DNA from: Anaerovoracaceae bacterium
GTDB taxonomy: Bacteria > Bacillota > Clostridia > Peptostreptococcales > Anaerovoracaceae
NCBI GenBank assembly: GCA_036637375.1
Contig: JAVWMQ010000004.1
Location: forward strand, 4,698-68,697
Direction: 5' to 3'
Length of the DNA: 64,000 nucleotides
Shown: piece after piece, positions 10,089-64,000 of the stretch
Layout of the letters: each line of letters begins with the position of its first letter
Numbering within the stretch: position 1 is the first letter of the stretch
The notes under the pieces: model-generated
The model's database searches: none
Told to the model about the DNA's origin: nothing
The model's input: only the letters and a program-made list of their open reading frames with translations
Program-made: the position numbers and the translations under genes

Positions 10089-10089
10089 A

Positions 10090-12839: not shown

Positions 12840-12862
12840 AAAGTAAACTATTGACTATAATG

Positions 12863-12895
12863 AAACGCTACTGATGATATTTAGTAGCGTTTTTG
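12863..12895 (+). terminator. Rho-independent terminator after sppA
   Basis: AAACGCTACT (12863-12872) pairs with AGTAGCGTTT (12883-12892), followed by a T run. Confidence 0.6.
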
Positions 12896-12920
12896 TATGA
12901 ATTGACAAAAGAGAGAAAGA

Positions 12921-14334: not shown

Positions 14335-14390
14335 AGTTGAGGTGGCAAGTGAGAGTACTTGACACATATAATTGGAGGAAGCAAATATTA

Positions 14391-14750
14391 ATGATGTTTG
14401 ATGAAATTACAAGAGTTAGCCTGTTATATGATTTTTATGGTGAATTGCTTACAGATAGACAAAAGGATGTAATGAAATTATACCATGAAGAAAATTTGTC
14501 ATTATCTGAAATTGCAGATGAATTTGGAATTAGCAGACAGGGTGTACATGATGCTCTAAAGAATGCAGAGAAAGCATTAACTACATATGAGAGTAAACTT
14601 GGTTTAGTTAAGAAATTTGAAATAAACAAAGAGGCTGTAAATATGATAGACAGGGAGTTGAATATTCTTATTTCTGAAAACGACAATGTGGAATTAATTA
14701 CGAGGCTTAAGGATATTAAGCAAATAATAGACAATATTAGTGAACAATAG
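14391..14750 (+). CDS. ylxM: YlxM/UPF0122 helix-turn-helix protein (putative SRP operon protein)
   Basis: ATG 14391 follows a GGAGGA RBS; the ORF-track start at 14337 is upstream of the RBS. The sigma-70 region-4-like segment LSLSEIADEFGISRQGVHDALK is present. Located immediately upstream of ffh, as in other Firmicutes. Confidence 0.8.
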   Translation: MMFDEITRVSLLYDFYGELLTDRQKDVMKLYHEENLSLSEIADEFGISRQGVHDALKNAEKALTTYESKLGLVKKFEINKEAVNMIDRELNILISENDNVELITRLKDIKQIIDNISEQ

Positions 14751-23132: not shown

Positions 23133-23978
23133 ATGAAAGAGTTGGTATTAAACAATTATAAAGACGGTCCACTTGTTGCATATGAGTGGGACATTCACGA
23201 TCCAAAGCATATGGTTGTACTAATTCATGGTATTGGAGAATACGCAGCTAGATATAATCGAGTAGCTTCAGAATTCAATAAAAATGGAATAGCAGTATTT
23301 AGTATGGATTTAAAAGGCCATGGGATAAGTTATGGTAAACGTGGACATTGTGCACCAAGAACGGAAGTGTTTAGAGATATTGATTTATTAATAGAATATG
23401 CCAAGGATAAACATCCAGATGCTCCTATAGTTTTATATGGACATAGTATGGGAGGAAATATTAGTTTAAATTACAGATATAACGGTAAACTTAATAGCCT
23501 TATGGAGGGCTATATTATATCCGCTCCGTGGGTAACCTTAGTTAGACCAGTTCCGTCATATCAGTACAAAAGCATTAAAGTTTTATCAAAAATATTCCCG
23601 CAAAAAACGATTTCATCTAAGATCGATGAAAAGGATTTAGGTAATTTAAAAAATGTAAAAGGATATAACAAAGACCCATTAGTTCACGAAAAAATTTCGT
23701 TTTTGTGTGCTCTTGAAGGTTTTGAAATTGCAAAAAAAATGGCGAATAATACCATTACTAAGACTGGTGAGGGCAGCAAAAAACCCATGCTGTTAATGCA
23801 TGGGGATGCTGATGTTGTTTGCAGTGTTGTGGGTAGTAGGCAAATCAAAGAAAACGAAGGTGATATTTGCACTTATGTTGAATGGGAAGGCCTAAGCCAT
23901 GAAATTCACAATGGTGGCAAAATCAGTGAAGGTAATGAAGTTATTGCTAAAGCTATTGAATGGATTCAGGCGCTTTAG
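23133..23978 (+). CDS. Alpha/beta hydrolase (lysophospholipase / monoacylglycerol lipase family)
   Basis: ATG 23133 follows an AAAGGAGG RBS; the ORF-track start at 23085 is upstream of it. Oxyanion motif HGIGE, nucleophile elbow GHSMGG, and distal HGDAD and SHE. Confidence 0.75.
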   Translation: MKELVLNNYKDGPLVAYEWDIHDPKHMVVLIHGIGEYAARYNRVASEFNKNGIAVFSMDLKGHGISYGKRGHCAPRTEVFRDIDLLIEYAKDKHPDAPIVLYGHSMGGNISLNYRYNGKLNSLMEGYIISAPWVTLVRPVPSYQYKSIKVLSKIFPQKTISSKIDEKDLGNLKNVKGYNKDPLVHEKISFLCALEGFEIAKKMANNTITKTGEGSKKPMLLMHGDADVVCSVVGSRQIKENEGDICTYVEWEGLSHEIHNGGKISEGNEVIAKAIEWIQAL

Positions 23979-25626
23979 GTGTAACATAAACAGTTTTATT
24001 ATCAGTAAATATAACCATTCCAGGCTTTGCACCGGAAGGTTTTTTGACAAAACGTACTTGTGTATAATCTACAGGTACGTTTTCTGATTCTTTACCCTTA
24101 CTGTGAAAAGCAGCAATAGCAGCAGCTTCAAAAATTGCAACATCACTAGGTTCTTTACCCTGTGTAAATAGGATTGTGTGGGAACCTGGTATGTCTTTTG
24201 TGTGAAACCAAATGTCGGTTCTATTTGCTGTTTTAAATGTTAATATATCGTTATCCTTGTTGTTTCGGCCAACTAAAATTGTAAAGCCATCAGAACTTTC
24301 GTATTTATATGGTTCTGGCTTTATTTTTTTTGTATTTCTATTTATTTGTTTACGTCTTCTAATGATTCCACATTCAATAAGCTCATCTTTGATTTTATCA
24401 ATGTCCTCTGTTTTTTCTGCAGACTCAATGAAGCTAATTACAGATTCAAGGTACTGCACCTCGCTATCAGTTTCTTCTAACTGAATGTTTTTTTCAACAA
24501 TTGCGGTTTTAGCTTTATTGTATTTTTTGTAATATGCCTGAGCATTTTTTGCAGGCGTTAATCTAGTATTTAGACTAATAGTAACCTGACTGTTGTCATA
24601 ATAATTTAGAACAGTTGTTTTGCTATCACTGGACTTTACCTGGTGAAGATTAGCAGTCAAAAGTTCGCCAAAAAGCCTGTATTTATCAGCATTTTCGGCT
24701 TTTTGTATATCTTCTAAAAGTCTTTGCTTTTTGAGATATAGTTTCTTTAAAAGATTTAAAACTGTGCGATGTAGATCAGATGATTTTTGTTTAACTCTGT
24801 TTGAACTTTCTTTGTGAGCATAATAGTAAGAAATAGTCTCACTTACAGTATTGAATTTTTTACATGTAAGTTCCCTATAAGAATCTATTTCCAGCACATG
24901 AAAGTCAAGAGGTGTGTTATCTTGATCAAAATAAACGCAAGGAGTTAAATCCATATCTCTCAATTGCATCTTAAATGAATTAAGCTTTGCAAGTCTATCT
25001 TCGCTTTCAAAGATTTCTCGAGCAATTAAAGGTGATATGCCTTGTATATTTTCAAGAATATCTTTTGGGCTAGTTGATTCCAAAAGAGTATTCCCACTAT
25101 AAGTATCAAAGGCTTCCTTGTTTTGTGAAGGTGGATATTCATAAGTAAGACCAGGCAAAATTTGACGAGCCCTGTTTACATCAATTGAAACTCTTTTGAT
25201 ACAATCTAGTATTTTGAGAGTAGATGTTTCAATAAGTATTATATTACTGTGCTTGCCCATTATTTCTATAATTAGTTTTTTGTTTGTATTAAATCCAAGT
25301 TCATCTCGAGTTTCAAAGTCTATTTCTATTATTCGTTCAAAGTCCTTTTGTGTAACAGCGACAATTCGTCCATTTTGTAAGTGCTTACGCAAAAGCATGC
25401 AAAAACTACTTGGACTTGCTGGGTTTTGGTAGTTATCCTCAGTTAAATAAATTCCAGCATGATTAGTTGATACAGAAGCATATACTTTGAGCTTTCCATT
25501 TTTTGTGTGAACAAAAAATACAAGTTCATCTTTTTCTGGTTGATAAACTTTTTCTATTTTACCTAATAGTAAATGGGAGTTTAATTCATTCACTATAGCT
25601 CTACAAGTTATTCCGTCGAATGCCAT
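23953..25626 (-). CDS. rqcH: Ribosome quality-control protein RqcH (NFACT/FbpA family)
   Basis: 557 aa. NFACT-N domain (MAFDGITCRAIVNEL), coiled-coil middle and NFACT-R/DUF814 (TDIWFHTKDIPGSH). Confidence 0.85.
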   Translation of the reverse strand: MAFDGITCRAIVNELNSHLLLGKIEKVYQPEKDELVFFVHTKNGKLKVYASVSTNHAGIYLTEDNYQNPASPSSFCMLLRKHLQNGRIVAVTQKDFERIIEIDFETRDELGFNTNKKLIIEIMGKHSNIILIETSTLKILDCIKRVSIDVNRARQILPGLTYEYPPSQNKEAFDTYSGNTLLESTSPKDILENIQGISPLIAREIFESEDRLAKLNSFKMQLRDMDLTPCVYFDQDNTPLDFHVLEIDSYRELTCKKFNTVSETISYYYAHKESSNRVKQKSSDLHRTVLNLLKKLYLKKQRLLEDIQKAENADKYRLFGELLTANLHQVKSSDSKTTVLNYYDNSQVTISLNTRLTPAKNAQAYYKKYNKAKTAIVEKNIQLEETDSEVQYLESVISFIESAEKTEDIDKIKDELIECGIIRRRKQINRNTKKIKPEPYKYESSDGFTILVGRNNKDNDILTFKTANRTDIWFHTKDIPGSHTILFTQGKEPSDVAIFEAAAIAAFHSKGKESENVPVDYTQVRFVKKPSGAKPGMVIFTDNKTVYVTPKAPESIQ

Positions 25627-28092: not shown

Positions 28093-28830
28093 ATGTCAGT
28101 AATTTCAATGAAACAGCTTTTAGAAGCAGGTGTTCACTTTGGACATCAGACAAGAAGATGGAACCCAAAAATGGCTCCATACATTTTTACAGAAAGAAAT
28201 GGTATTTACATCATCGACTTACAGAAAACTGTAAGAAAGATTGATGAAGCTTACTCTTTCATGAAGGAAGTTGGCGAAAGCGGCAAACCAGTATTATTCG
28301 TAGGAACAAAGAAACAGGCTCAGGCTGCTATCAAAGATGAAGCTGCTAGATGCGGAATGTACTACGTTAACCAGAGATGGTTAGGCGGAATGCTAACTAA
28401 CTACAAGACAATTTCTGCTAGAATTAAGAGACTTAATGATATTAAGAGAATGTCTGAAGATGGAACTTTTGCTAAATTAGGTAAGAGAGAAGTTCTAACA
28501 CTTGAAAGAGAATATGAAAGATTAGAAAAATTCTTAGGCGGTATCAAAGACATGAAAGGTATGCCAGGAGCAATCTTCGTTGTTGACCCTAAGAAAGAAA
28601 GAATTGCAGTTAAAGAAGCTAGAATTCTAGGAATTCCAGTTGTTGGTATCGTAGATACAAACTGTGACCCTGATGATGTTGATTACATTATTCCTGCTAA
28701 TGATGATGCTATTAGAGCAGTTAAATTAATTGCTGGTGGCATGGCTGACGCTATCATCGAAGGCAGACAGGGAGAAAGTTTCGATGAAGGAGAAGCTACT
28801 TCAGAAGTAGCAGAAAGCGAGGCAGAATAA
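28093..28830 (+). CDS. rpsB: 30S ribosomal protein S2
   Basis: ATG 28093 follows AGGAGG. The protein begins [27 protein letters not shown]. Confidence 0.95.
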
Positions 28831-29753
28831 TGGCAGTAACAGCACAGATGGTAAAAGAACTTAGAGAAATCACAGGCGCAGGCATGATGGATTGCAAAAA
28901 AGTTCTTGTTGAAACAGATGGCGATATTGAAAAAGGTATTGAGCTACTAAGAGAAAAAGGACTTGCTAAAGCAGCTAAAAAAGCTGGAAGAGTTGCAGCA
29001 CAGGGTCTTGTAAGACTTGCATTCTCAGCAGATGGCAAAAAAGCAGCTATTATCGAAGTAAACTCAGAAACAGACTTCGTTGCAAAGAATGATGATTTCA
29101 TTAACTTTGTTGAAGGGCTAGCAAACTTAGCATTAGAATCAGATGTAGCAGACCTAGAAGCATTCATGGCTCTTTCATTTGGTGAAGGTACAGTTCAGGA
29201 TAGCTTAAACAACAAGATTGCAACAATCGGTGAAAACATGAACATCAGAAGATTTGAAAAGTTCGAAGAGCCAGGAGTTGTTTATGGCGGTTATGTTCAC
29301 GGAAACGGAACAATCGGTGTAATCGTTGGAATTAAAACAGATGCTACTGTTGAAGAAATTCAGGTTGTAGGTAAAGACGTTGCAATGCAGGTTGCTTCAA
29401 TGAACCCACAGTTCTTAGATGAATCTTCAGTAGATCCAGCATACATTGCACACGAAAGAGAAATCCTAACTCAGCAGGTTCTAAACGAAGGTAAAAAGCC
29501 AGAAATGGTTGACAGAATCGTTGATGGAAAAATCAAAAAAGAAATCAAAGAAGTTTGCCTAGTTGAACAGAAATTTGTTAAGAATGGCGATGTAACAGTT
29601 AAGCAGTATGTTGCTGAAGCTGGTGCAGCTATTGGCAAAGATATGGAAGTTGCTTCAATGCTTCGTTATGAAGTAGGCGAAGGAATCGAAAAAGTTGAAG
29701 AAGACTTTGCAGCAGAAGTAGCAGCACAGCAGGCAGCTGCAGCAGCTAAATAA
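28830..29753 (+). CDS. tsf: Elongation factor Ts
   Basis: 307 aa with a UBA-like N-terminus (MVKELREITGAGMMDCKKVL). The start overlaps the rpsB stop (TAATG). Confidence 0.95.
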   Translation: MAVTAQMVKELREITGAGMMDCKKVLVETDGDIEKGIELLREKGLAKAAKKAGRVAAQGLVRLAFSADGKKAAIIEVNSETDFVAKNDDFINFVEGLANLALESDVADLEAFMALSFGEGTVQDSLNNKIATIGENMNIRRFEKFEEPGVVYGGYVHGNGTIGVIVGIKTDATVEEIQVVGKDVAMQVASMNPQFLDESSVDPAYIAHEREILTQQVLNEGKKPEMVDRIVDGKIKKEIKEVCLVEQKFVKNGDVTVKQYVAEAGAAIGKDMEVASMLRYEVGEGIEKVEEDFAAEVAAQQAAAAAK

Positions 29754-37999: not shown

Positions 38000-39781
38000 T
38001 TATATTTTTTGTGTTGCATTTTTGAGCCAAGAAACCTCATCTGGATTAAGTAAAGGTGAAATTTTCTCAAATACAATTTGATGATATGTATTTAAAGACT
38101 CTCGTGTTTCATTTGAAATATATGATAAATCAATGCCTGCAAGATCAAAAGGAACAAAAGTTAAGTATTCAAATGCTAATAACTCTGGGCTAACATCGGA
38201 TTTAACACAAAGCATTTCGTTTTCGTGTCTAATGCCGTATTCCCCTTCAATATAAAGCCCAGGTTCGTTAGAGTTTATCATACCAGCTTCCATTGGCACA
38301 GAGTAACCAACATTCTTGCAATTAATATTATTTGGAAATTCATGGACGTTAAGCATATGACCAACACCATGACCTGTACCATGGTTGTAGTCTAAACCTA
38401 ATTTCCATAGGGGGCTCCTAGCAATAACATCTAGCTGTGCAGCCGCAAATGTATTTGGGAAAACTGCATTTCCAAGGGCAAACATACCCGACAAAACCGC
38501 TGTGAAGTGTAACTTCATAGTATCACTTAATGGGCCCAGTACAATTGTTCTAGTAATATCGGTCGTTCCTCCCATATAATGTCCGCCTGTATCAACTAAA
38601 ACTAAACCTTCATCTAAGAGTTTAACATCTGTTTCTTCAGTTGCCTCGTAATGGACAATAGCACCATGAGCATTATAGCCTACAATTGCAGCAAAACTTT
38701 CGTCAAAGCAACCTTGTTCTTTTCTAAACTCATATAGTTTTTTGCTTGCGCTTAATTCTGTTATTTGCCCTGTTGCAACGTTTTCTTTTAGCCATTTTAT
38801 AAATCTAATCATGGCAACTGCATCCTTGAGATGGACTTCTTTTGTTGAAGCAATTTCAATGGAATTTTTGATTGCCTTTGCAGTGGTTGTTGGATTTACT
38901 GCTAGAACTACTTTTAATCTTTCCATTAACTTTGATCCTATCTCGTAATTTGTAAATTCAGGACTAATTAAAATTGACATATCTTTTTTGAGGGTATCTA
39001 CGAATGTGTAGATATGATTGTAAGGCATAATTGTAATGTCAAGGCCTTTAAGGTAATCTGACATTTCAGTATTAAATTTACATTCATCTGCAAACAATAT
39101 GAACTCATTTTGTGAAATATATGCATAGCTTAGAATGAGTGGGTTGAAATCTATATCAGCACCACGAATGTTTAAAAGCCAAGCGATATCGTCTAGAGTT
39201 GTTAGTATGTGTCCATTAACATTTGCTTTAGTCAATTCATTGCGCAAATTTGCGATTTTGTTTGTTGAATGAATCCCTGTATATTTTTCATCTATTAAAT
39301 ATGCGGGTGCTTTGGATAATTCTGGTCTAGCTGTCCACACTTGATCTACTAAGTCAAGATTAGTGACTAAAGATACACCATTTGCTGAAAGTTCATTATT
39401 TAACGCTGTACCAAACTCAAGAGAAATGGTACGACCGTCAAGTCCAAGCCTATCACCACAGATTAAGTTTGTTGACAAAAATTCTGTAATTGTTGGAACG
39501 TTCTTTTCTCCCATTTTTTGAAGTTTGATTTCAGTGTTAGAAAGCTGCTTTGCAGCTTGAATGAAGTACCTGCCATCAGTCCAAAGGTGGGCTTCTTGAT
39601 TGGTGACAATAAGTGTGCCAGAGGAACCAGTGAAACCTGACATATATTCTCTACACTTAAAATAGTCGCCTACATATTCAGATAGATGGAAGTCATCTGT
39701 TCCAATGTAATAAGCATCTATGTTGTTGCTAATCATCAGCTCTCTTAGCTTGTTGATTCTTCTTGATATTTCATTTTTCAT
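38000..39781 (-). CDS. pepP: Xaa-Pro aminopeptidase (M24B, three-domain APP1-like)
   Basis: 593 aa. Creatinase-like N domains are followed by an M24 pita-bread core with DTGGHY, HGTGHGVG and NEPG. Confidence 0.85.
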   Translation of the reverse strand: MKNEISRRINKLRELMISNNIDAYYIGTDDFHLSEYVGDYFKCREYMSGFTGSSGTLIVTNQEAHLWTDGRYFIQAAKQLSNTEIKLQKMGEKNVPTITEFLSTNLICGDRLGLDGRTISLEFGTALNNELSANGVSLVTNLDLVDQVWTARPELSKAPAYLIDEKYTGIHSTNKIANLRNELTKANVNGHILTTLDDIAWLLNIRGADIDFNPLILSYAYISQNEFILFADECKFNTEMSDYLKGLDITIMPYNHIYTFVDTLKKDMSILISPEFTNYEIGSKLMERLKVVLAVNPTTTAKAIKNSIEIASTKEVHLKDAVAMIRFIKWLKENVATGQITELSASKKLYEFRKEQGCFDESFAAIVGYNAHGAIVHYEATEETDVKLLDEGLVLVDTGGHYMGGTTDITRTIVLGPLSDTMKLHFTAVLSGMFALGNAVFPNTFAAAQLDVIARSPLWKLGLDYNHGTGHGVGHMLNVHEFPNNINCKNVGYSVPMEAGMINSNEPGLYIEGEYGIRHENEMLCVKSDVSPELLAFEYLTFVPFDLAGIDLSYISNETRESLNTYHQIVFEKISPLLNPDEVSWLKNATQKI

Positions 39782-44648: not shown

Positions 44649-46379
44649 TTACTTGAAATGTCTTTTAATTAGTTCAATTTCCTCGTGTCTTTTGACTTTT
44701 GCTGTAGATGTTTTAATCATAGGCTCGTCAGTTATTATTACACGAATTAAATTTTTGTAATGAGGCATAGTTTCATTTATTTTATCTATATCATTTTTAA
44801 TTATTTTTTCTAAATCTTCAGTGGAGATATCACCGTAGGTGGTTTTTATATATTCTCCATTATATACTATTTTAACCCCAAGGATAAGATCTGTTTCATC
44901 GTCTGCCTTAGGCATACCAAAGACAAAGTTTTCTGCTACATATGGTAGACTTGAAATTAATAACTCGATTTCTTCTGGATAAACATTTTTACCATTTTTG
45001 AGAACAACAACATTCTTGGAACGACCACTCAAAAATAAGAACCCATCTTTGTCAATATATCCAAGGTCACCTGTATTAAACCAACCATCTACAAACACTT
45101 TATCTGTTTCTTCTTGGTTTTGATAATAACCAACCATTACATTTGGACCTTTAACAAATACATCACCAATACCTTCGGAGTTTGGTTCGTTGATTTTAAT
45201 ATCAACGTTGCACATTGCTTTACCTACTGAGCCGATTCTAATATTATTGTTATTTTCGGCAGATACAACAGGGGAAGTTTCGGTAAGTCCATAGCCTTGT
45301 ACAGCAACAATACCAAGGTCTAGGAAACATTCCAATGCTTTTTTATCAATTGCAGAAGCTCCAGTAATTAAAAGTCTTAGATGTCCACCTAATTGTTCGT
45401 GTATACTAGCAAATACTTTACGTCTAATATCAATTTTGAACTTCAAAAGAAATCTAGTTAGCTTAATCATAGTATTAAAAGTTTTTTCTTTGCCTTCTTT
45501 TTTTACTTTTGTCATTATTTTCTTGTAAATACTTTCTATAAGCAAAGGAACACAGAAAAATACAGAGATTTTATACTCTATAAGATTTTTATTAATGTAT
45601 TTAAGACCATCACAAAATGCTGTACTAACACCAGATGCTAACATTAGCAGTGTTCCTGTTGAACCAAAAGTGTGATGTAGTGGTAGAAGTGCTAAACTAC
45701 GCTCGCCTTCAAAAATAAATTCAGAAGATTGAAGTGCATATAAGTTTGAAAGTATATTTTGCTGAGTAAGTGCAACTATTTTAGACATTGATGTTGTACC
45801 AGAAGTAAAAAGTAAAATAGTTACTTCGTCTTTATCTATTACTTTTTCATCATATGCAGTACTTCCATTATTGATTAATTCAAGCCCTTGGCTCTTAATA
45901 GTTTCAAGTTCTATAAAATCAGTTGAACTATTAAGATTTACAAATAGGTTTACTGTTGTAGAATGTTCATCTTGTATTTTTTTTGCAGTTTCAAGGTGAC
46001 CATCATCAAAGAATAAAATATCAGCTTCACTACGTGTTATAGAGGATAGTGTTTCTTCAAATGTTAGACCTTTGTCTAATGGTATTACAATGCCAACACC
46101 AGCTAGAGTCGCATAGTATGCCAAAAGCCAATTGTAAGAGTTATCTCCTATAATTGCAATTTTTTTGTTTTCGTAGCCAAGGTTTAGCAATGCTGTGGCA
46201 ACAGCTTTTACATCCAAGCAAAATTGATCATAGCTAACTGATGTATAAGTTATTTCTTTTTTAACCTTTTTCTTTAAAATAAAAGCCTCTTTACCTGAAT
46301 ATCTAGTTGCAATATCTGCAAAAAAATCTTTAAAATCAGAATAATGGGGCTTTTGGAATTCTATTGGTAGCTTATTCAT
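44649..46379 (-). CDS. AMP-dependent acyl-CoA synthetase (long-chain fatty acid--CoA ligase-like)
   Basis: 576 aa with LFTSGTTSMSKIV, GYGLTETS, NTGDLGY and GRSKNVVVLKNGKNVYPEEIE. Confidence 0.8.
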   Translation of the reverse strand: MNKLPIEFQKPHYSDFKDFFADIATRYSGKEAFILKKKVKKEITYTSVSYDQFCLDVKAVATALLNLGYENKKIAIIGDNSYNWLLAYYATLAGVGIVIPLDKGLTFEETLSSITRSEADILFFDDGHLETAKKIQDEHSTTVNLFVNLNSSTDFIELETIKSQGLELINNGSTAYDEKVIDKDEVTILLFTSGTTSMSKIVALTQQNILSNLYALQSSEFIFEGERSLALLPLHHTFGSTGTLLMLASGVSTAFCDGLKYINKNLIEYKISVFFCVPLLIESIYKKIMTKVKKEGKEKTFNTMIKLTRFLLKFKIDIRRKVFASIHEQLGGHLRLLITGASAIDKKALECFLDLGIVAVQGYGLTETSPVVSAENNNNIRIGSVGKAMCNVDIKINEPNSEGIGDVFVKGPNVMVGYYQNQEETDKVFVDGWFNTGDLGYIDKDGFLFLSGRSKNVVVLKNGKNVYPEEIELLISSLPYVAENFVFGMPKADDETDLILGVKIVYNGEYIKTTYGDISTEDLEKIIKNDIDKINETMPHYKNLIRVIITDEPMIKTSTAKVKRHEEIELIKRHFK

Positions 46380-54317: not shown

Positions 54318-55022
54318 ATGGAACCTAAATATAAGCGAATTATACTAAAAGTGAGTGGAGAAGCCCTAGCTGGTGAAGATAAATTTGGACTTAATGAGGA
54401 AATGCTAAAAAAAATAGCAAGACAAGTTAAGGAGGTTTATGAGCTTGGAGTAGAAGTTGCCATTGTTGTAGGTGGCGGAAACTTCTGGAGAGGCAGAACT
54501 AGCAAGGATATGGACAAAGCAACAGCTGACTATATGGGTATGCTTGCAACAGTAATTAACGCACTTGCGCTTCAAGATGCTTTTGAGTCTATTGATATAC
54601 CAACAAGAGTTCAAACAGCAATTGAAATGAAGGAAATTGCGGAACCGTATATTAGACGTAAAGCTGTACATCATCTTGAGGGAAACAAGGTAGTTATATT
54701 TGGAGCAGGAATAGGAAGCCCATTCTTTTCTACAGATACAACTGCAGCACTAAGAGCAGCAGAAATTGATGCAGATGTTATATTACTTGCCAAAAAAATT
54801 GATGCTGTATATTCTGATGACCCAGAAATAAATAAAGACGCTGTTAAATATGATGAATTAACACACTTTGATATTTTAGAAAAGGATTTAAAAGTTATGG
54901 ATTCTACAGCGGCATCTTTGTGCAAAGACAATAATATTGCAATACATGTATTTGGAATTGCAGAAGATGGAAATGTTATGAAAGCAGTTTGTGGAGAAAA
55001 AATAGGCACAATTATTAAATAA
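54318..55022 (+). CDS. pyrH: UMP kinase
   Basis: 234 aa with [21 protein letters not shown] and [10 protein letters not shown]. Confidence 0.95.
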
Positions 55023-55041
55023 TTATTTGGAGGACAAAAAA

Positions 55042-55599
55042 ATGAGTAAACAAATTTTAGATCAGTTAGAAGCAAAAATTGAAAAGTCGGTAAATAACCT
55101 AAAGGAAGAATTACTAGGCGTAAGAGCAGGAAGAGCAAATGCTGCTATAGTGGATAAGGTTTTAGTAGAATATTATGGAGCACCTACACCACTTAAACAG
55201 CTTGCAAATATTTCAATTCCAGATCCAAAGACAATTGCGATTTCACCTTTTGACTCTTCAATTATTAAAGAAATTGAACATGGAATTAATGTTGCAAACA
55301 TTGGTATTAACCCAAGCAATGACGGAAAAACTATTAGATTAGTAATTCCACCAATGACAGAAGAAAGAAGAAAAGAACTAACAAAAACAGTTAAAGCATT
55401 AGGAGAAGAAGCAAAGGTTGCTATTAGAAACCTAAGAAGAAATGCTAACGATCACTTGAAGAAAGAAGAAAAAGCAGGTGAGTTAACAGAAGATATGCTT
55501 AAAGAAGAACTTGATAAAGCACAAAAAGATACAGATGCAGGAATTAAAAAAATTGATGATTTGATTGTTGCAAAAGACAAGGAGATAATGGAAGTATAA
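55042..55599 (+). CDS. frr: Ribosome recycling factor
   Basis: ATG 55042 follows GGAGGA. 185 aa with GVRAGRANAAIVD and PPMTEERRKEL. Confidence 0.95.
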   Translation: MSKQILDQLEAKIEKSVNNLKEELLGVRAGRANAAIVDKVLVEYYGAPTPLKQLANISIPDPKTIAISPFDSSIIKEIEHGINVANIGINPSNDGKTIRLVIPPMTEERRKELTKTVKALGEEAKVAIRNLRRNANDHLKKEEKAGELTEDMLKEELDKAQKDTDAGIKKIDDLIVAKDKEIMEV

Positions 55600-55605
55600 T
55601 TATTT

Positions 55606-56322
55606 ATGTTAGATTTAAATAGAATACCCAATCACGTTGCCATCATTATGGATGGCAACGGAAGATGGGCTAATAAACGTAATATACCAAGGGTTATGGG
55701 GCATAATGCTGGAATGAAGGCAATGAAAGAAATTGTAAAGCAAAGCTCTATACTAGGTATCAAACATTTAACCGTATACGCTTTTTCTACAGAAAACTGG
55801 AAGAGAACAGAAGAAGAAGTAAACGGTATTTTTGGATTGCTTATTAAATATGTGGATAAGGAATTAACAGAAATATGTGAGAATAATGTGAAACTTACAG
55901 TTATTGGCGATATGTCAGCAATGCCAGAAAAGGTAAAAAGCAAACTAGATTTAGCGTTAGATAAAACTAAGAACAATGATGGATTGCAATTTAATATAGC
56001 TCTTAATTATGGTGGTAGAGCTGAGATTGTTGAAGCTGTAAAGGCTATCGGAAACAATATTGCAAATGGGAATATTAATGTTGATGATATTAACGAAGAA
56101 ATGATTTCAAACAGTCTATTTACGGGGGGAGCAGCAATTCCAGATCCAGATTTATTGATTAGAACTTCTGGAGAAATTAGGCTTTCAAACTTCTTGCTTT
56201 GGCAGTTAGCCTACAGTGAAATGGCATTTACTGATGTGCTATGGCCAGATTTTACACCAGCTGAATTTGAAAAAGCAATAATGGAATATCAAAGTAGAGA
56301 TAGACGTTTTGGTGGAAGGTAG
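55606..56322 (+). CDS. uppS: Undecaprenyl diphosphate synthase (isoprenyl transferase)
   Basis: 238 aa with HVAIIMDGNGRWA, FSTENWKR and IRTSGEIRLSNFLLWQ. Confidence 0.95.
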   Translation: MLDLNRIPNHVAIIMDGNGRWANKRNIPRVMGHNAGMKAMKEIVKQSSILGIKHLTVYAFSTENWKRTEEEVNGIFGLLIKYVDKELTEICENNVKLTVIGDMSAMPEKVKSKLDLALDKTKNNDGLQFNIALNYGGRAEIVEAVKAIGNNIANGNINVDDINEEMISNSLFTGGAAIPDPDLLIRTSGEIRLSNFLLWQLAYSEMAFTDVLWPDFTPAEFEKAIMEYQSRDRRFGGR

Positions 56323-56328
56323 GCTTAT

Positions 56329-57111
56329 ATGAAAACGAGAATAATTTCCGGATTGATTATGTTACCACTATTGGGGGTAATATATTTAGGTGGATATGTG
56401 TTATCTGCTTTTTGTGTATTAATTGCAATTGGCGGAGTATATGAATTTTATAAAGGGTTTCATGCACTTGATATTAAACCAAGTTTTACCATTGGAGTAA
56501 TTTCAGCTTTAGGACTGTTTGCTGTTGGACTTTTTGCAAATGAACCTAAGTTTTATATGGTGTGGTTGTTTTTGACAGTATTAGCATGTCTCCTTTATCT
56601 ATTTAAGATTGAGGAAAGAAAACTTGAGGATGCATTGGCAACACTAATAGGCATTGTGTATGTAGTATACTTCTCATTCCATGTGGTATTAGTTGATCAA
56701 ACAGGAGAACCAAGCATTTTAGTTTGGCTAATTGTACTATCTGCTTTTGGAACAGATGTAATGGCATACTTTGCAGGTGTTACTTTAGGCAAGCATAAGC
56801 TTTGTCCAAAAATCAGTCCCAAAAAGAGTATAGAAGGTTCAATTGGTGGAATAATTGGCAGCATCACTATTTGTGGTATATTTGGGTATTTCTTTGCTAA
56901 TGAATACTTTATCCATGCACTTATCATTGGTGCACTTGGAGGTGTAGTTTCACAATTTGGAGACCTTACAGCTTCAATCTTTAAACGAAAGATGGGTATT
57001 AAAGACTATGGGAATTTAATTCCAGGTCATGGTGGTGTTCTTGATAGATTTGACAGTGTATTATTTACAGCGCCATTAGTTTATTATTATATTGATTTAT
57101 TTATTTTATAA
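56329..57111 (+). CDS. cdsA: Phosphatidate cytidylyltransferase
   Basis: 260 aa membrane protein with the signature SIFKRKMGIKDYGNLIPGHGGVLDRFDS. Confidence 0.9.
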   Translation: MKTRIISGLIMLPLLGVIYLGGYVLSAFCVLIAIGGVYEFYKGFHALDIKPSFTIGVISALGLFAVGLFANEPKFYMVWLFLTVLACLLYLFKIEERKLEDALATLIGIVYVVYFSFHVVLVDQTGEPSILVWLIVLSAFGTDVMAYFAGVTLGKHKLCPKISPKKSIEGSIGGIIGSITICGIFGYFFANEYFIHALIIGALGGVVSQFGDLTASIFKRKMGIKDYGNLIPGHGGVLDRFDSVLFTAPLVYYYIDLFIL

Positions 57112-57120
57112 GGTGTCAAA

Positions 57121-58251
57121 GTGAAAAAGATAGGAATATTAGGTAGTACGGGGTCAATAGGTACACAAAGTTTAGATATTGTTTCAAATAATCAAGAACA
57201 GTTCAAGGTAACTGTTCTTAGTTGTGCTACTAGAATAAAAGAACTATCTTTGCAAATTGAAGAATTTAGTCCTGAAATAGTCGTTGTAAAAAACGAAAAA
57301 GATGCAATAGAATTGCAAAAAAAATACAAGCAGGTTGATGTGCTTTTTGGGAAAAAGGGTTTAATTGATGCTGCAAAACTAGGGAATTATGATATTTTAT
57401 TAAATTCATTGATGGGGATAAAAGGTCTTGAGCCAACATATGAAGCGATTAATGCGGGCAAAGATATAGCTCTTGCGAATAAAGAAACTTTAGTGGCAGG
57501 AGGAGAAATCATTATGAAAGCGGTGAAAGAAAAAGGTGTGGCTATGCTACCTGTTGATAGCGAGCATAGTGCTATCTTTCAGGCGCTTGAAGGAAATAAA
57601 CGAAGCGAATTAAGTAGAATTTTGTTAACAGCTTCTGGGGGGCCGTTTAGAGGATACACTTTGGATGGACTAAAAAATGTAAAAAAAGAGGAAGCATTAA
57701 ATCACCCTAAGTGGACAATGGGGAGTAAAATTACAATAGATTCTGCAACTATGATGAATAAAGGTTTAGAAGTTATTGAAGCGAAATGGTTGTTTGGAGT
57801 TGATGAGGAAAATATTGAAATATTGGTTCATCCTCAAAGTATTGTTCATTCAATGGTAGAATATGTAGATGGTAGTGTTATTGCACAACTTGGAAGTCCG
57901 GATATGAGAACGCCTATTGCATATGCTTTTAGTTACCCAAATAGGATTAAGAGCGATTTGCCAAAGCTGAATTTTTTTGAGGAGGGTGCAAACTTAACTT
58001 TTGAAAAACCAGACAGAAATACATTTAAGTGTATTGACTTGGCATACAAGGCGTCAAAGGCGGGAGGAAGTTATCCTGTAGTTCTAAATGGAGCAAATGA
58101 AGTGCTAGTTGATAGGTTTTTGAGAGGGGAAATTGAATTTATAGAGATTCAAGAAAGTCTTGAGAGAATTCTTGATGAACATAAACCTAAATATCAATTA
58201 TCGTTAAAAGAGGTAATTGAAATTGATGAGAAAGTAAGGAAAGAAATATGA
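57121..58251 (+). CDS. dxr: 1-deoxy-D-xylulose 5-phosphate reductoisomerase
   Basis: 376 aa with a GTG start. Motifs GSTGSIGTQSL, LANKETLV, PVDSEHSAIFQ and NKGLEVIEA. Confidence 0.95.
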   Translation: MKKIGILGSTGSIGTQSLDIVSNNQEQFKVTVLSCATRIKELSLQIEEFSPEIVVVKNEKDAIELQKKYKQVDVLFGKKGLIDAAKLGNYDILLNSLMGIKGLEPTYEAINAGKDIALANKETLVAGGEIIMKAVKEKGVAMLPVDSEHSAIFQALEGNKRSELSRILLTASGGPFRGYTLDGLKNVKKEEALNHPKWTMGSKITIDSATMMNKGLEVIEAKWLFGVDEENIEILVHPQSIVHSMVEYVDGSVIAQLGSPDMRTPIAYAFSYPNRIKSDLPKLNFFEEGANLTFEKPDRNTFKCIDLAYKASKAGGSYPVVLNGANEVLVDRFLRGEIEFIEIQESLERILDEHKPKYQLSLKEVIEIDEKVRKEI

Positions 58252-59261
58252 CGATAATATATGCTATTTTGATGTTTTGTATATTGATCTTCATACATGA
58301 GCTTGGACACTTTGCTGCAGCAAAAGCTTGCGGGGTAAAGGTTAATGAATTTGCTCTAGGTATGGGACCAACAATTGTAAGTAAGCAAAAGGGGGAAACA
58401 AAATATTCTCTTCGTGCAATTCCAATAGGTGGATTTTGTGCAATGGAAGGTGAGGATGAAGAATCCAATGATGATAGAGCGTTTAACAACAAAAAAGCGT
58501 GGCAAAAAACTATAATTGTAATTGCAGGCTCTTTTATGAACGTTTTATTAGCATTAATTTTGATTACAATTGTAGTTTATAATATGGGGTTCCCAAGTAC
58601 AACTATTGCAAATGTTCAAAAAGACAGTCCAGCATACCATGCTGGGATTCAAGTGGGAGATAAGATTACAAGTGTTAATGGCACAAAAATTAATGAATGG
58701 CAAGAGCTTAGTGTTTTAATTAAAAAAGATGCAGATCAAAAGACTGTTAATCTTGGAATAAATAGAGATGGCAAGAACTTAGTTATAAATTCTGAGTTGA
58801 AGAAAGCACAAGATGGTAGAATGGTAATGGGTGTTCTCGCAGATAGAGAAAAAAACATTGGCAAATCTATAATCAATGGGCCTAAAGCAACTTTAGCCAT
58901 GACAAAAGATATGTATGGAGTTCTAAAGAAACTTGTTACAGGAGAAGTTTCTACAAAGGAATTATCAGGTCCAGTTGGAATTGTTTATATGGTTGACAAA
59001 AGTGCAGAGCAAGGATTCATTACGGTACTGTACTTTATGGCATTAATAAGCTTGAATTTGGGTATTGTAAATATGTTACCACTACCAGCTCTTGATGGCG
59101 GTAGATTGGTGTTTATAATTATTAGAAAAATAACAGGACAAGCAATAACTGACGAGATGGAAGGCAGGGTTCATATTGCAGGAATGGTGTTATTATTAAC
59201 ATTAATGCTTTATGTGACGTGGAATGATATATTTAGATTTATTGTACCAGTTTTTAAATAG
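58248..59261 (+). CDS. rseP: RIP metalloprotease RseP/RasP (M50 site-2 protease)
   Basis: 337 aa with HELGHF, a single PDZ domain (AGIQVGDKITSVNG) and NMLPLPALDGG. Confidence 0.85.
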   Translation: MTIIYAILMFCILIFIHELGHFAAAKACGVKVNEFALGMGPTIVSKQKGETKYSLRAIPIGGFCAMEGEDEESNDDRAFNNKKAWQKTIIVIAGSFMNVLLALILITIVVYNMGFPSTTIANVQKDSPAYHAGIQVGDKITSVNGTKINEWQELSVLIKKDADQKTVNLGINRDGKNLVINSELKKAQDGRMVMGVLADREKNIGKSIINGPKATLAMTKDMYGVLKKLVTGEVSTKELSGPVGIVYMVDKSAEQGFITVLYFMALISLNLGIVNMLPLPALDGGRLVFIIIRKITGQAITDEMEGRVHIAGMVLLLTLMLYVTWNDIFRFIVPVFK

Positions 59262-59269
59262 GTGATCTT

Positions 59270-60343
59270 ATGACAAAAAAAATCAGGTGTGGTGACCTTT
59301 ACATAGGTGGCGACTTCCCAATCACAATACAATCAATGACAAATACAGATACACGAGATGTTAAGTCAACACTTCTACAAATTGAAAAATTAAGGGAAGC
59401 AGGGTGTGAAATAATAAGGCTGGCAGTTCCAGATATGGAAGCGGCACAAGCTTTTGGTGAGATTAAAACTAAGATTAAAATGCCTATGGTTGCAGATATA
59501 CATTTTGATTATAGATTGGCAATTGAAGCTATAAAAATGGGAGCTGACAAAATTAGGATTAACCCAGGAAACATAGGAAGCGTGGATAGGGTTAAAGCTG
59601 TTGTGGATATGGCAAAGAGCCGAGAAATTCCAATTAGGATTGGAGTTAATTCGGGTTCACTAGAAAAAGATATACTAGAAAAAGAAGGTGGGGTTACAGC
59701 TAACGGGCTAGTTGAAAGTGCAATTAGAAATGTAAGATTGCTTGAAGATTTAGACTTTGGCGATATTGTAATTTCACTAAAGGCATCTGACCCTAAGATG
59801 AATTACGATGGATATATGTCCATATCAAAAATGAGTGACTATCCGCTGCACATTGGTGTTACAGAGGCAGGAACTGTTTCGAGAGGAAAAATTAAGAGTG
59901 CGGTAGGAATTGGTGCATTACTATTGGCTGGCGTTGGAGATACTATGAGAGTATCATTAACAGGAGATCCAGTTAATGAAATATATGTTGCAAAATCCAT
60001 ACTTGCATCTGCTGGTATTAAAAAGGAAGCTATTAATTTGGTATCATGTCCAACTTGTGGTAGAACTTGTGTGGATCTATCAAAGATTACAGATGAACTC
60101 GAAGAAAAGCTAGTTAAGGTGACAAATGAACGTATAATAAAAGGGCTACCAGAATTGACAGTTGCAGTTATGGGCTGTGTTGTTAACGGTCCAGGGGAAG
60201 CTAGGAGTGCAGACCTTGGAGTGGCTTGTGGTATTGGAGAAGGCTTGCTATTTATTAAAGGCAAGACAATACGCAAAGTGAAAGAAGAAGAAATTTGTAA
60301 TAGTTTAATAGATATGGTGAAAAATTATGAAAGGTATGTTTGA
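59270..60343 (+). CDS. ispG: 4-hydroxy-3-methylbut-2-en-1-yl diphosphate synthase
   Basis: 357 aa with PITIQSMTNT, RINPGNIG, CPTCGR and GCVVNGPGE. Confidence 0.95.
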   Translation: MTKKIRCGDLYIGGDFPITIQSMTNTDTRDVKSTLLQIEKLREAGCEIIRLAVPDMEAAQAFGEIKTKIKMPMVADIHFDYRLAIEAIKMGADKIRINPGNIGSVDRVKAVVDMAKSREIPIRIGVNSGSLEKDILEKEGGVTANGLVESAIRNVRLLEDLDFGDIVISLKASDPKMNYDGYMSISKMSDYPLHIGVTEAGTVSRGKIKSAVGIGALLLAGVGDTMRVSLTGDPVNEIYVAKSILASAGIKKEAINLVSCPTCGRTCVDLSKITDELEEKLVKVTNERIIKGLPELTVAVMGCVVNGPGEARSADLGVACGIGEGLLFIKGKTIRKVKEEEICNSLIDMVKNYERYV

Positions 60344-63300
60344 TAACTTATTAAAGAACAACTATTCATACGAAATAAAAGAAGCCTTAATGTCAAGTGA
60401 AACAAAGAAGTTGGAAATTGGTATAAGGCTTAATTTTGTTATTCCAATAGAAGATGTGAATAGAGAAAAAAACAAGATACTAGAAATGGTACCTGAACTA
60501 AAAGGTGTTGATTTTCGTTTTAAATACTTTGATATGGAGCAGGATAAGGAAACTATAATAGCGAATATGTTGCCTCATTTAATCAGTATTGTAAATGGCA
60601 AATATGACCATATCACCAAAACTATTAATCTTAATAGATTTGATATAAATAACAATGAAATAACTTTTTTTGCTGTTGGTAAAATTATGTGCGATATGCT
60701 AAATGATGAGGTTGCAATTAAGTTTAAGGAAATTTTAAATAATAGATTTGGATATGAAGATAATATAGTCTTTTGTAATGATGAGTGTGCTTACAAAACA
60801 GCTAAAAAAGAAGTGGTTGAGGAAATTCCAAGTGTTATGCAAAAAACAATTCAGCCAAAGAGTGAAAACAAAGAATTCAAAACAAAAGAGAAGGCAACTA
60901 AAAAAGAAAAGAATGTCGAAATGGTAGGCAACAGAGTTATGGGTAAGCCTATTGCCAAGGAACCTATGAAAATGATTGATTTTAGTGAATCCAGTGGTGA
61001 TGCCTGTGTTATGGGTGAAATTTTTAGCATAACGAAAAAGGATATAAAGAACAACAAAAAAATTGTAACGATTTTACTGACAGATAATCAAACGTCAATA
61101 TGTGCAAAGGCCTTTGCAACAGAAGAAAAATGGACTGTAATAGAGGAAAACCTTAAAGAAGGCGACCATATAAAAATAAAAGGAAATGCTGAATGGGATA
61201 GTTTTGCAAATACACCTGTTTTGATGATTAAGGATTTAGAAAAAATACAAGCCTTTGAGGGGCGAATGGATGATGCTGAGGAAAAACGTGTAGAACTTCA
61301 CGCCCATACAAAAATGAGTTCTATGGACGGGCTTCAGGATGTTAAACATATGGTTAAATTAGCTGCTTCATGGGGGCACAAAGCAATTGCCATTACAGAC
61401 CATGGTGTAGTTCAAGCATTTCCAGATGCAGCAAGGGCAGCAGGTGGCAAAGATATAAAAATCATATATGGTGTAGAGGGTTATTTGTTTGATGACAAGG
61501 ATTGCAAAAATGAAGATGGAACAATTGAGTACAAAAAAAAGCCTACAAATCATGTGATTATTTTGGCGAAAACTCAAGAAGGGCTCAAAAACTTATATAA
61601 GTTAGTATCTCTGTCACATCTTGAATATTTTTACAAGAAACCAAGAATACCAAAATCTGTGTTGACACAAAATAGAGAAGGACTAATTGTAGGTTCTGCC
61701 TGTGAAGCGGGAGAAGTATATAGAAGTCTTGTTCAGAAAAAATCAAAAGAAGAGATTGACGAAATTGTAAACTACTACGACTATTTGGAAATCCAGCCTT
61801 TAATAAATAACCAGTTTATGATAGACAAGGGGATTGTAAATAGCAGGGAAGATTTGGTTAACCTTAATAAAAGAATAGTTGAACTTGGCAGGGAACATGG
61901 CAAAACTGTTGTAGCAACATGTGATGCTCACTATGCAAACGAAGAGGATGCTATATATAGAAAAATATTGATGTCAGGACAAGGATATAAGGACTTAGGT
62001 GAAGGCGGACTTTACCTTAGAACTACTGATGAAATGCTAGAAGAATTTTCATATTTGGGCAGAGAAATTGCAAAAGAAGTCGTAATTACAAATCCTAATT
62101 TAATTGCAGATTCAATTGAAGCCATTAGACCTGTACCAAAGGGTAAATTCCCACCACACATTGATAATGCAGATGTGACTTTAAGGCAGGAGTGTTATGA
62201 CAAAGCTCATTCAATTTATGGAGATCCTTTGCCAGAGGAAATACAAAAACGACTTGATGATGAATTAAGTGCAATTATCGATGAGGGATATGCGGTGATG
62301 TATGTTTCGGCTCAGATGCTCGTTAGGAAGTCTATGGAAGACGGATACCTTGTAGGTTCTCGAGGTTCTGTAGGATCGTCCTTTGCAGCAACGATGGCTG
62401 GTATAACGGAGGTAAATCCATTGCCACCACATTATATTTGTCCAAATTGCAAGAACCTTGAATGGGGCGATGAAAATGAATACGATTGTGGTGTCGATAT
62501 GCCACAAAAAAATTGTCCAAAATGTGGTGAAGCTTATAAACAAGAAGGGTTTACAATTCCTTTTGAAACGTTTTTGGGTATTCCCGGAAAGCAAAAGGAA
62601 CCAGATATTGACCTTAACTTTGCAGGTGAGTATCAGCCTATAGCTCATAAATATGTAGATGAAATATTTGGCAGCAAGAATGTGTTTAAGGCAGGAACAA
62701 TTGGTACTATCGCTGGCAAAACTGCTTATGGATTTGTTATGAAATATTTTGAGGAAAGGCAACAGCCTGTAAATAAATATGAAATAGATAGACTTACAAG
62801 GTGTTGTGAGGGAGTTAAAAGGACTACAGGACAGCATCCAGGGGGAATTATCATTTTGCCAGAGGGGCATGAAATATATGAGTTTTGTCCGGTACAACAC
62901 CCTGCGAATGATGCAAGTACAGGAATTATAACAACTCACTTTGATTATCATGCTATTGATGAAAACTTGCTTAAACTAGATATTCTAGGTCACGATGCGC
63001 CGTCTATGATTAGACAATTACAGGATATGACTGGACTTGATCCAATGGACGTTCCGCTAAAAGATGAAAAAGTAAATAGCTTGTTTTTAGGCACAGAGGC
63101 TTTGGGAATTAAGGATCCGGACTATATTTTTAAGCATGGTAGTTTTGGGATTCCTGAATTTGGAACTAAATTTGTAAGGCAGATGTTAGATGATACAAAA
63201 CCAACTAAATTTGCCGACCTTGTTAGAATTTCAGGGTTTTCCCATGGTACAAATGTATGGCTTGGCAATGCTCAATATTATATCAAGGAAGGAATTGCAA

Positions 63301-64000
63301 CAATGCAAAACGCAATTTCGACTAGAGATGACATTATGAACTATTTAATACTTAAAGGTGTTCCGAGTATTCCAGCATTTACTATTATGGAAAAAGTGCG
63401 TAAAGGTAAAGGAGTTAGCGATGAGGAAGCTGCCTTAATGACAACTCATGGTGTTCCGAGTTGGTATATCGATTCATGCAGAGCAATTTCATACATGTTC
63501 CCAAGGGCTCATGCTGTTGCATATGTTACCATGGCATATAGAATTGCTTATTTCAAAGTTTATTATCCACCAGAGTTTTATGCAGTCTATTTGACAACGA
63601 AGATTGCAGACTTCAACTGGGAAGTTATAAAGCAAGGTTCTAAATCTATTTTGAAGAGAATAGAGGAAATAACATTGAAAGGTAAGAATGCAACAAAAAA
63701 AGAAGAAGACGAAGTTACTGTTTTGGAAATTTGCTATGAAATGTATTCTAGAGGTTATCAATTTGCACCTCCAGCACTTGGAGAATCTACAGCTTTAAGA
63801 TTTTCTGTAAAAGATGGTAAGGTTCTAGTTCCGTTTTGTGCATTAAACGGTGTTGGCGAGAGTGCAGGCAAGGCTATTTATGAAGAATTCCAAAAGAAGC
63901 CTTTTGAAACTATTGAGGAAATTAGAGAAAGAGCCAAGGCGAACAAGACGGCAATCGAATCTTTGAGAAATGCAGGTGTGCTAAAAGGACTTCCAGAAAC
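60327..64000 (+). CDS. polC: PolC-type DNA polymerase III alpha subunit, 3' end outside the window; lacks the DEDD exonuclease insert
   Basis: The frame is open from ATG 60327 to the window end with no stop, so it is absent from the ORF track. ATG 60327 overlaps ispG by 17 nt; ATG 60336 is an alternative start. The translation is collinear with Gram-positive PolC. It shows an N domain, an OB fold and a PHP domain (VELHAHTKMSSMDG, AITDHG). It also has the zinc module CPNCK...CPKCG, the palm motifs (GSRGSVGSSF, EPDIDLNF, GQHPGGII) and HFDYH...LDILGHD. Confidence 0.9.
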   Translation, partial: MKGMFDNLLKNNYSYEIKEALMSSETKKLEIGIRLNFVIPIEDVNREKNKILEMVPELKGVDFRFKYFDMEQDKETIIANMLPHLISIVNGKYDHITKTINLNRFDINNNEITFFAVGKIMCDMLNDEVAIKFKEILNNRFGYEDNIVFCNDECAYKTAKKEVVEEIPSVMQKTIQPKSENKEFKTKEKATKKEKNVEMVGNRVMGKPIAKEPMKMIDFSESSGDACVMGEIFSITKKDIKNNKKIVTILLTDNQTSICAKAFATEEKWTVIEENLKEGDHIKIKGNAEWDSFANTPVLMIKDLEKIQAFEGRMDDAEEKRVELHAHTKMSSMDGLQDVKHMVKLAASWGHKAIAITDHGVVQAFPDAARAAGGKDIKIIYGVEGYLFDDKDCKNEDGTIEYKKKPTNHVIILAKTQEGLKNLYKLVSLSHLEYFYKKPRIPKSVLTQNREGLIVGSACEAGEVYRSLVQKKSKEEIDEIVNYYDYLEIQPLINNQFMIDKGIVNSREDLVNLNKRIVELGREHGKTVVATCDAHYANEEDAIYRKILMSGQGYKDLGEGGLYLRTTDEMLEEFSYLGREIAKEVVITNPNLIADSIEAIRPVPKGKFPPHIDNADVTLRQECYDKAHSIYGDPLPEEIQKRLDDELSAIIDEGYAVMYVSAQMLVRKSMEDGYLVGSRGSVGSSFAATMAGITEVNPLPPHYICPNCKNLEWGDENEYDCGVDMPQKNCPKCGEAYKQEGFTIPFETFLGIPGKQKEPDIDLNFAGEYQPIAHKYVDEIFGSKNVFKAGTIGTIAGKTAYGFVMKYFEERQQPVNKYEIDRLTRCCEGVKRTTGQHPGGIIILPEGHEIYEFCPVQHPANDASTGIITTHFDYHAIDENLLKLDILGHDAPSMIRQLQDMTGLDPMDVPLKDEKVNSLFLGTEALGIKDPDYIFKHGSFGIPEFGTKFVRQMLDDTKPTKFADLVRISGFSHGTNVWLGNAQYYIKEGIATMQNAISTRDDIMNYLILKGVPSIPAFTIMEKVRKGKGVSDEEAALMTTHGVPSWYIDSCRAISYMFPRAHAVAYVTMAYRIAYFKVYYPPEFYAVYLTTKIADFNWEVIKQGSKSILKRIEEITLKGKNATKKEEDEVTVLEICYEMYSRGYQFAPPALGESTALRFSVKDGKVLVPFCALNGVGESAGKAIYEEFQKKPFETIEEIRERAKANKTAIESLRNAGVLKGLPE

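Follow-up and report, generated by a model that had tools for sequence, protein, structure and literature searches.

The textbook definition of PolC, the DNA polymerase III alpha subunit of the Gram-positive type, rests on a DnaQ-type proofreader built into the enzyme; inhibitors of PolC are being developed clinically against Gram-positive pathogens. The polC gene considered here, which lies at the end of a 64,000-nucleotide stretch from an Anaerovoracaceae bacterium (assembly GCA_036637375.1, contig JAVWMQ010000004.1; the whole stretch is termed here the window), encodes a PolC without that proofreader. This architecture is already known: according to Timinskas et al. (2014; PMC3919608), 6% of PolCs lack the DnaQ-like exonuclease (Exo) domain, and all of these belong to Clostridia or Negativicutes, except for one extra copy in Thermotogae. 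Lineages with an Exo-less PolC pair PolC with DnaE1, and within such systems 16% of PolCs are without Exo (PMC3919608). One described example, from Acidaminococcus fermentans (YP_003399045.1), is a 1191-residue protein of a 'PC+E1' system that consists of an N-terminal domain (NTD) followed by OB, PHP, Pol3 and helix-hairpin-helix (HhH) domains and that conserves all nine residues, HHDHEHCDH, of the PHP motif (PMC3919608). The window contains one more member of this catalogued variant, and no new kind of system.

The PHP domain, into which the DnaQ-like domain of canonical PolC is inserted, has itself been linked to proofreading. Its nine motif residues hold the trinuclear zinc center that is the replicative proofreader of Mycobacterium tuberculosis DnaE1, and the Exo domain of PolC is inserted in a loop lining the groove to the PHP active site--a loop of 29 residues in M. 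tuberculosis, 18 in Taq and 9 in Escherichia coli (PMC5636811). A 2026 survey scores a PHP domain as 'active' if its motif reads HHDHEH[C/H]DH, credits Clostridia mostly with three candidate proofreaders, and states that within the alpha subunits of Pol III the PHP domain, rather than the DnaQ proofreader, has been inactivated (PMC12926913); its supplements include Aminipila butyrica and Mogibacterium diversum among the genomes analyzed. For PolC the only support for PHP proofreading is genetic and indirect: in Clostridium thermocellum, the substitution C669Y, which alters the PHP cysteine, yields a roughly 30-fold hypermutator (bioRxiv 10.1101/2021.07.30.454558).

The protein encoded at the end of the window is an orthologous replicative PolC of the Anaerovoracaceae (Clostridia, Family XIII). 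Its last seven codons (TDQLSLF) and its stop codon lie beyond the window's end, and an identical full-length database protein (P0001, recorded as 'MAG: PolC-type DNA polymerase III [Anaerovoracaceae bacterium]') has 1231 residues and the C-terminus ...GLPETDQLSLF. The PolC equivalog profiles are clearly exceeded (NF001688 with 1467.7 bits against a cut-off of 873; TIGR01405 with 1331.2 against 1043.45), whereas the scores with DnaE models, 130-245 bits, stay far below the respective cut-offs (434-1806), which places the protein outside the DnaE1 clade. Its domain order is specific to PolC, running from the NTD through OB, PHP, Pol3 core and HhH to the QLSLF clamp motif at the C-terminus; in particular, the OB fold precedes the PHP domain, as in PolC and unlike in DnaE.

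From this PolC the Exo domain is absent, a domain-sized, clean in-frame deletion having left a 24-residue loop in its place. Within the polC open reading frame (ORF), a Pfam search detects no match to RNase_T (PF00929), even at E<=1. The match to NF001688 is split into two stretches, the better of which sets residue 398 of the query at profile position 605. The structure 3F2B, the Geobacillus kaustophilus PolC construct with Exo deleted, aligns with the window protein in one piece, end-to-end from residue 212 (1049 bits); the full-length PolC 9QPC aligns in two pieces, with chain residues about 449-631 lacking a counterpart in the query. The closest Exo-bearing relative found (P0271; 1425 residues, 59% identity in the core) pairs its residues 20-397 with query residues 1-392 and its residues 594-1425 with query residues 400-1231, so that 196 residues there correspond to seven here.

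Other routes by which the domain might have been missed were considered as well. The motif D-x-E-[TS]-[TSN]-G occurs in no forward frame of the polC ORF, and a custom profile, built from 106 PolC Exo inserts, obtains no significant match in six-frame translations of the whole window and of loci L001-L004 (of which L003 and L004 are those of relatives). A hidden or frameshifted Exo domain was rejected, the best score of this profile being 11.6 bits, on a YlxM-like ORF at 14337-14750. Relocation elsewhere within the chain, comparable to the N-terminal fusions of Bacteroidetes DnaE1, was rejected as well, no Exo hidden Markov model (HMM) match being found in any Exo-less PolC; and a split into a neighboring gene was rejected for the 10 kb on either side of polC in all Exo-less genome loci. 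The DnaQ-like insertion within PHP--a 'hallmark' of PolC--is missing here, and for this reason the protein is filed as the described Exo-less variant rather than as canonical PolC; like the proteins of Timinskas et al., it combines NTD, OB, PHP, Pol3 and HhH domains with an intact nine-residue PHP motif and a clostridial host.

These results bear out an earlier note, made from the sequence alone, which had reported both the missing domain and the lack of any D-x-E-T-T-G-like motif, had described the rest of the protein as collinear with canonical PolC, and had predicted a length of about 1240 residues; its quoted translation of 61440-61620 is exact (frame 1), and the HxH and DH ligands that it considered retained are accompanied by the other five PHP ligands.

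The remainder of the protein looks, as judged from its sequence, fully functional. The catalytic aspartates (D760 and D762 within PDIDLNF, and D885 within LDILGHD) and the zinc motif CPNC...CPKC (CPNC705 and CPKC730) are present and are conserved in the alignment to 3F2B, and the QLSLF clamp-binding motif forms the C-terminus of P0001, just past the end of the window. The N-terminal part is poorly conserved: residues 11-392 share 38% identity with P0271, and the region up to residue ~211 matches no Pfam model. Coordinates are collected in Table 1.

Table 1. Features of the polC locus, in positions of the 64,000-nt window; residue numbers are those of the PolC protein.
Feature	Coordinates	Strand	Remarks
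Conserved upstream block pyrH-frr-uppS-cdsA-dxr-rseP-ispG	54318..60343	+	
polC ORF	60327..64000	+	start ATG (MKGMFDNLL...); 1224 of 1231 codons inside the window
N-terminal region, poorly conserved, residues 1 to about 211	60327..60959	+	boundary approximate
OB fold, residues 228-305	61008..61241	+	PF01336, E 2.8e-5, 24.4 bits vs curated cut-off 27; region aligns to 3F2B
PHP domain core	61293..61931	+	PF02811, 1.3e-34, single uninterrupted stretch 323-490
Bridging loop G385-N408, 24 residues	61479..61550	+	GYLFDDKDCKNEDGTIEYKKKPTN; at the site of the DnaQ-like Exo domain in canonical PolC
Polymerase core (palm, thumb, fingers), residues 618-1028	62178..63410	+	PF07733 (DNA_pol3_alpha) 6.1e-55, PF17657 (DNA_pol3_finger) 1.1e-22
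Tandem helix-hairpin-helix, residues 1145-1222	63759..63992	+	PF14579 (HHH_6) 2.1e-10

The loop joins the PHP ligands E384 and H409, and most of it (D389-N408, DDKDCKNEDGTIEYKKKPTN) is encoded by 61491-61550. All nine metal ligands of the PHP domain are present (H325, H327, D334, H359, E384, H409, C459, D533 and H535). Among the 120 closest homologs (59-77% identity; 1212-1326 residues, all without PF00929 and from Anaerovoracaceae or Family XIII), the motif HHDHEHCDH is invariant in 120 of 120; every one of them has a loop of 21-26 residues, in which a core resembling EDG[TS]I[DE]YK recurs. Such strict conservation of the ligands, down to an overall identity of 59%, argues for selection on the PHP site. 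An AlphaFold2 model of residues 310-625 has a pLDDT of 89.2 and a pTM of 0.88, with block-mean pLDDT values of 91-96 across the loop, and matches PHP domains of PolC with TMq 0.80-0.86 and those of DnaE, including Thermus and M. tuberculosis DnaE1, with TMq of about 0.7.

The architecture is widely shared among relatives. Homologs without PF00929 include those of the cultured Anaerovorax odorimutans, Anoxybacterium hadale, Sinanaerobacter chloroacetimidivorans and Aminipila. Species-representative genomes were also scanned, with query-specific peptide patterns locating polC and an Exo HMM calling the state of the junction; this gave 55 loci that cover the junction without Exo--among them those of Clostridium aminobutyricum, Mogibacterium kristiansenii, Gallibacter intestinalis, Lentihominibacter hominis, Alterileibacterium massiliense and, with a complete chromosome, Eubacteriales bacterium KG125--and 22 loci of other families, such as Acidaminobacter and Metaclostridioides, with Exo inside polC. 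For a whole family of gut and oral anaerobes, the Anaerovoracaceae (Mogibacterium, Anaerovorax, Aminipila and others), the replicating PolC is thus one minus the domain by which the enzyme is defined. No sign emerged of the mis-assembly that the earlier note had considered: the architecture is common to the 120 homologs, and the identical protein occurs on eight contigs, among them JAVWJZ010000003.1 (83 kb) of GCA_036638735.1 and one from the independent Logan assembly of SRR25820360.

No genome in the species scan yielded a second polC locus, though the patterns were query-specific and a divergent copy could escape them. This single locus per genome, together with canonical synteny, makes a second, Exo-bearing polC unlikely, and the same two observations argue against an accessory paralog. 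A side observation concerns L030, a metagenome-assembled genome locus of Eubacteriales Family XIII (isolate Ct408_bin15), in which polC (10001-14134) encodes an unusually long protein of ~1400 residues without an Exo HMM match; by a rough regular expression its junction spans ~68 residues, and it may hold extra sequence there.

Among described systems, this PolC resembles Exo-less variants such as that of A. fermentans, with which it shares domain architecture, an intact HHDHEHCDH motif, a C-terminal clamp motif and phylum, and from which it differs in its host (Anaerovoracaceae/Family XIII rather than Negativicutes) and in both the sequence and the length of the bridging loop. The crystal construct of G. 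kaustophilus PolC (3F2B/3F2C/3F2D) offers a structural counterpart: the natural 24-residue loop falls exactly at its engineered short linker, and the PHP folds are predicted to match (TMq 0.80). The deletion in 3F2B, however, is man-made, the native enzyme having an Exo domain. Moreover, one PHP ligand of G. kaustophilus PolC is changed (Asn for Asp, in GNVHY) and the enzyme is reported to lack PHP exonuclease activity (PMC5636811), whereas the consensus Asp is present here (TCDAHY).

Like M. tuberculosis DnaE1 and the Thermus Pol III alpha subunit, the window protein has an uninterrupted PHP domain with nine ligands, a loop of similar length (24 residues) and a comparable fold (TMq ~0.7). Those two enzymes differ in belonging to the DnaE1 branch, in having a C-terminal OB fold and another C-terminal domain, and in lacking the PolC N-terminal domain; their exonuclease activity has been demonstrated, whereas PHP activity is predicted here from sequence. 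The C. thermocellum enzyme is likewise a clostridial PolC from a genome with PolC and DnaE1, and its C669 corresponds to the metal-binding C459 of the window protein; unlike the latter it keeps its Exo domain, and the mechanism of its mutator phenotype was inferred rather than measured.

Loss of the Exo domain is not confined to one lineage. A neighbor-joining (NJ) tree built on the conserved core scatters the Exo-less representatives over many distinct clades and implies about 15 state changes, a figure that (the tree being a crude one, computed from Kimura distances and without support values) gives an order of magnitude only. The named Exo-less lineages include Anaerovoracaceae, Thermoclostridium sp. 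and Acidaminococcus, with 'Clostridia bacterium' as a further label. The bridging loops of Exo-less representatives range from 10 to 38 residues and differ in sequence. Two representatives at the 50%-identity level, P0130 and P0145 (both from outside the window), carry at the Exo site inserts (~160 and 141 residues, respectively) to which the Exo profile no longer gives a match, and P0130 reads YVAIYFANQQ where the D-x-E motif (Exo I) is expected; these inserts appear to be decayed Exo remnants. Because of the many separate Exo-less clades, the differing loops and the decayed inserts, recurrent loss is likely; for Exo-less lineages in general the NJ tree, in which Acidaminococcus was not included, suggests that the losses were independent.

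These losses are associated with the state of the PHP motif. Among 50%-identity representatives, the nine-residue motif is intact in 21 of 22 Exo-less proteins versus 70 of 113 insert-bearing ones (Fisher p=0.001, kinship ignored); when only representatives with at least 45% core identity to the query are considered, the corresponding fractions are 20/20 and 64/97 (p=0.0008, kinship again ignored). This pattern would fit a need to retain at least one proofreader.

The earlier note had named two functional options, a PHP exonuclease or one acting in trans; both are plausible and both are discussed in the literature, and the sequence decides neither. Of the mechanisms considered, proofreading in cis by the PHP domain, in the manner of M. 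tuberculosis DnaE1, is judged with moderate confidence to be the most likely one, because the nine ligands are invariant in 120 homologs and because motif retention is 21/22 in Exo-less proteins versus 70/113 in the others. By this mechanism, removal of the DnaQ-like DEDDh Exo domain from inside PHP would have left the 24-residue loop and an uninterrupted, DnaE1-like PHP domain with all nine ligands of a putative trinuclear metal center. A mismatched 3' primer end would then be edited in cis by the metal-dependent 3'-5' exonuclease of the PHP domain, as happens with M. tuberculosis DnaE1 and with the alpha subunit of Thermus Pol III, and such editing would render the DnaQ-like insert dispensable. 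The PHP site is accordingly presumed, under this mechanism, to be both catalytically active and sufficient for proofreading.

Several points weigh against PHP proofreading in cis. The association between Exo loss and the PHP motif ignores phylogeny and rests on automatic alignment. Most Exo-bearing representatives (70/113) also keep the nine-residue motif, so that an intact motif here is no specific evidence of compensation. The literature searched contains no biochemical study of any Exo-less PolC, and the effect of C669Y in C. thermocellum could be structural rather than catalytic. Furthermore, a protein from outside the window, P0209 (1178 residues; a cluster of nine members on contigs of up to 134 kb), has a bridge of 10-11 residues and the PHP motif HRSLENSDQ; lacking Exo and having a degenerate PHP domain, it implies that some PolC-like proteins have neither proofreader. 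Like the extra Thermotogae PolC of Timinskas et al., P0209 may be an accessory copy.

A first alternative is that this PolC has no proofreading at all and acts as a lower-fidelity or specialized polymerase, with DnaE1 carrying out the bulk of high-fidelity replication. No dnaE gene was found in the 64-kb window; a DnaE1 partner for this PolC is nevertheless expected, because every species is stated to have a DnaE-type subunit (PMC3919608, PMC12926913). For PolC+DnaE1 systems, a PolC of this lower-fidelity or specialized kind was already suggested as possible by Timinskas et al., and the Exo-less PolCs all occur in clostridial genomes with DnaE1, some Clostridia having DnaE1 only (PMC3919608). 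The recurrent loss of Exo, the loops of 10-38 residues and the decayed inserts of P0130 and P0145 likewise suggest that Exo is dispensable in this background. A polymerase without proofreading is nonetheless considered unlikely here, given that the gene keeps its canonical locus and the protein its catalytic triad, its zinc motif and a QLSLF clamp motif matching the consensus, and that the nine PHP ligands remain invariant across homologs down to 59% overall identity. Weak evidence in the same direction is provided by the strong positive GC skew and one-strand gene bias of the window, a pattern typical of PolC-driven replication.

A second alternative places proofreading in trans, with errors corrected by a stand-alone exonuclease of the DnaQ-like (epsilon) type that docks on the PHP domain, as happens in E. 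coli Pol III, or by the editing site of another polymerase, for example the PHP domain of a co-resident DnaE1. In its favor, stand-alone DnaQ homologs average more than three per bacterial proteome, and replicases are described as complementing each other in trans in Bacillus subtilis, where the Exo domain of PolC proofreads errors of DnaE3 (PMC12926913); furthermore, the PHP site is intact in the DnaE1 that partners PolC in Clostridia and Negativicutes, and this DnaE1 also has a conserved patch that putatively binds epsilon (PMC3919608). The 64-kb window, however, has no DnaQ-like ORF, and neither does the stretch of 10 kb on each side of polC in L003, in L004 or in any Exo-less locus, so that there is no conserved linkage between DnaQ and polC genes, and no Exo-less PolC has an Exo domain relocated within it. 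Moreover, a mere docking platform would not need nine ligands, five of which the E. coli alpha subunit has lost (PMC5636811). Proofreading in trans is accordingly rated quite improbable.

That the locus is an assembly or annotation artifact, a decaying pseudogene or an accessory paralog, as its origin in a metagenome-assembled genome and a contig end ~70 nt after the polC stop codon might suggest, is effectively refuted by the identical protein in independent assemblies, by a frame open for 1231 codons, and by isolate genomes and complete chromosomes that share the architecture, with a canonical locus and intact functional motifs.

PHP proofreading in cis can be extended, more tentatively, into a general proposal, for which the chances are put at a little under even: the PHP site of clostridial PolC may be a fully competent replicative proofreader that makes the DnaQ-like insert redundant. 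If so, redundancy of the insert would explain why Exo has been lost or has decayed independently so many times (the ~15 state changes; P0130 and P0145) and why losses occur almost only where the nine PHP ligands are kept (21/22 representatives), and whole families such as the Anaerovoracaceae would replicate with a PolC working like mycobacterial DnaE1. The recurrence of loss and its strict dependence on PHP reach somewhat past the explicit statements of the 2014 and 2026 surveys. The PolCs of the Anaerovoracaceae provide naturally occurring cases in which to test whether PolC truly proofreads by way of its PHP domain, a question that dates from 2014, the window being no more tractable for this than cultured relatives are.

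The canonical locus runs rpsB-tsf-pyrH-frr-uppS-cdsA-dxr-rseP-ispG-polC-rimP-nusA-ylxR-L7Ae-infB-rbfA-nrnA-truB-ribF. The orthologous position of polC (ispG/proS-polC-rimP-nusA-infB) is represented by its upstream half in the window and in L001 and by its full context in L003 and L004; the contig of the window stops ~70 nt past the polC stop codon. The start codon of polC lies 17 nt upstream of the end of ispG (60327-60343), and this overlap of the two reading frames suggests translational coupling; in L003 and L004 an NfeD/Band_7 gene pair is found between ispG and polC instead.

Measured per 4 kb, GC skew stays strongly positive across the window (positions 1-64000), ranging from +0.10 to +0.31. 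Large ORFs run almost exclusively on the forward strand, the large minus-strand ones being only those at 23953-25626, 38000-39781 and 44649-46379; because of both features, the window is assigned to the leading strand, with marked gene co-orientation. All the remaining ORFs of the window have housekeeping or metabolic roles.

A block of ~24.5 kb (29754-54317) separates tsf (28830-29753) from pyrH (54318-55022), two genes that lie side by side or nearly so in L003 and L004. The block contains kdpABC and kdpDE; genes for an M24 peptidase, a ferredoxin-like protein, a HAD hydrolase and an AMP-binding enzyme; a PFL-activating radical-SAM enzyme together with a PFL-like glycyl-radical enzyme; DUF1836 and asnB; and a hybrid histidine kinase with an SBP_bac_3 domain and a PKD/C39-like protein of 530 residues. 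It looks like a lineage-specific insertion in an otherwise conserved rpsB-tsf-pyrH-frr cluster.

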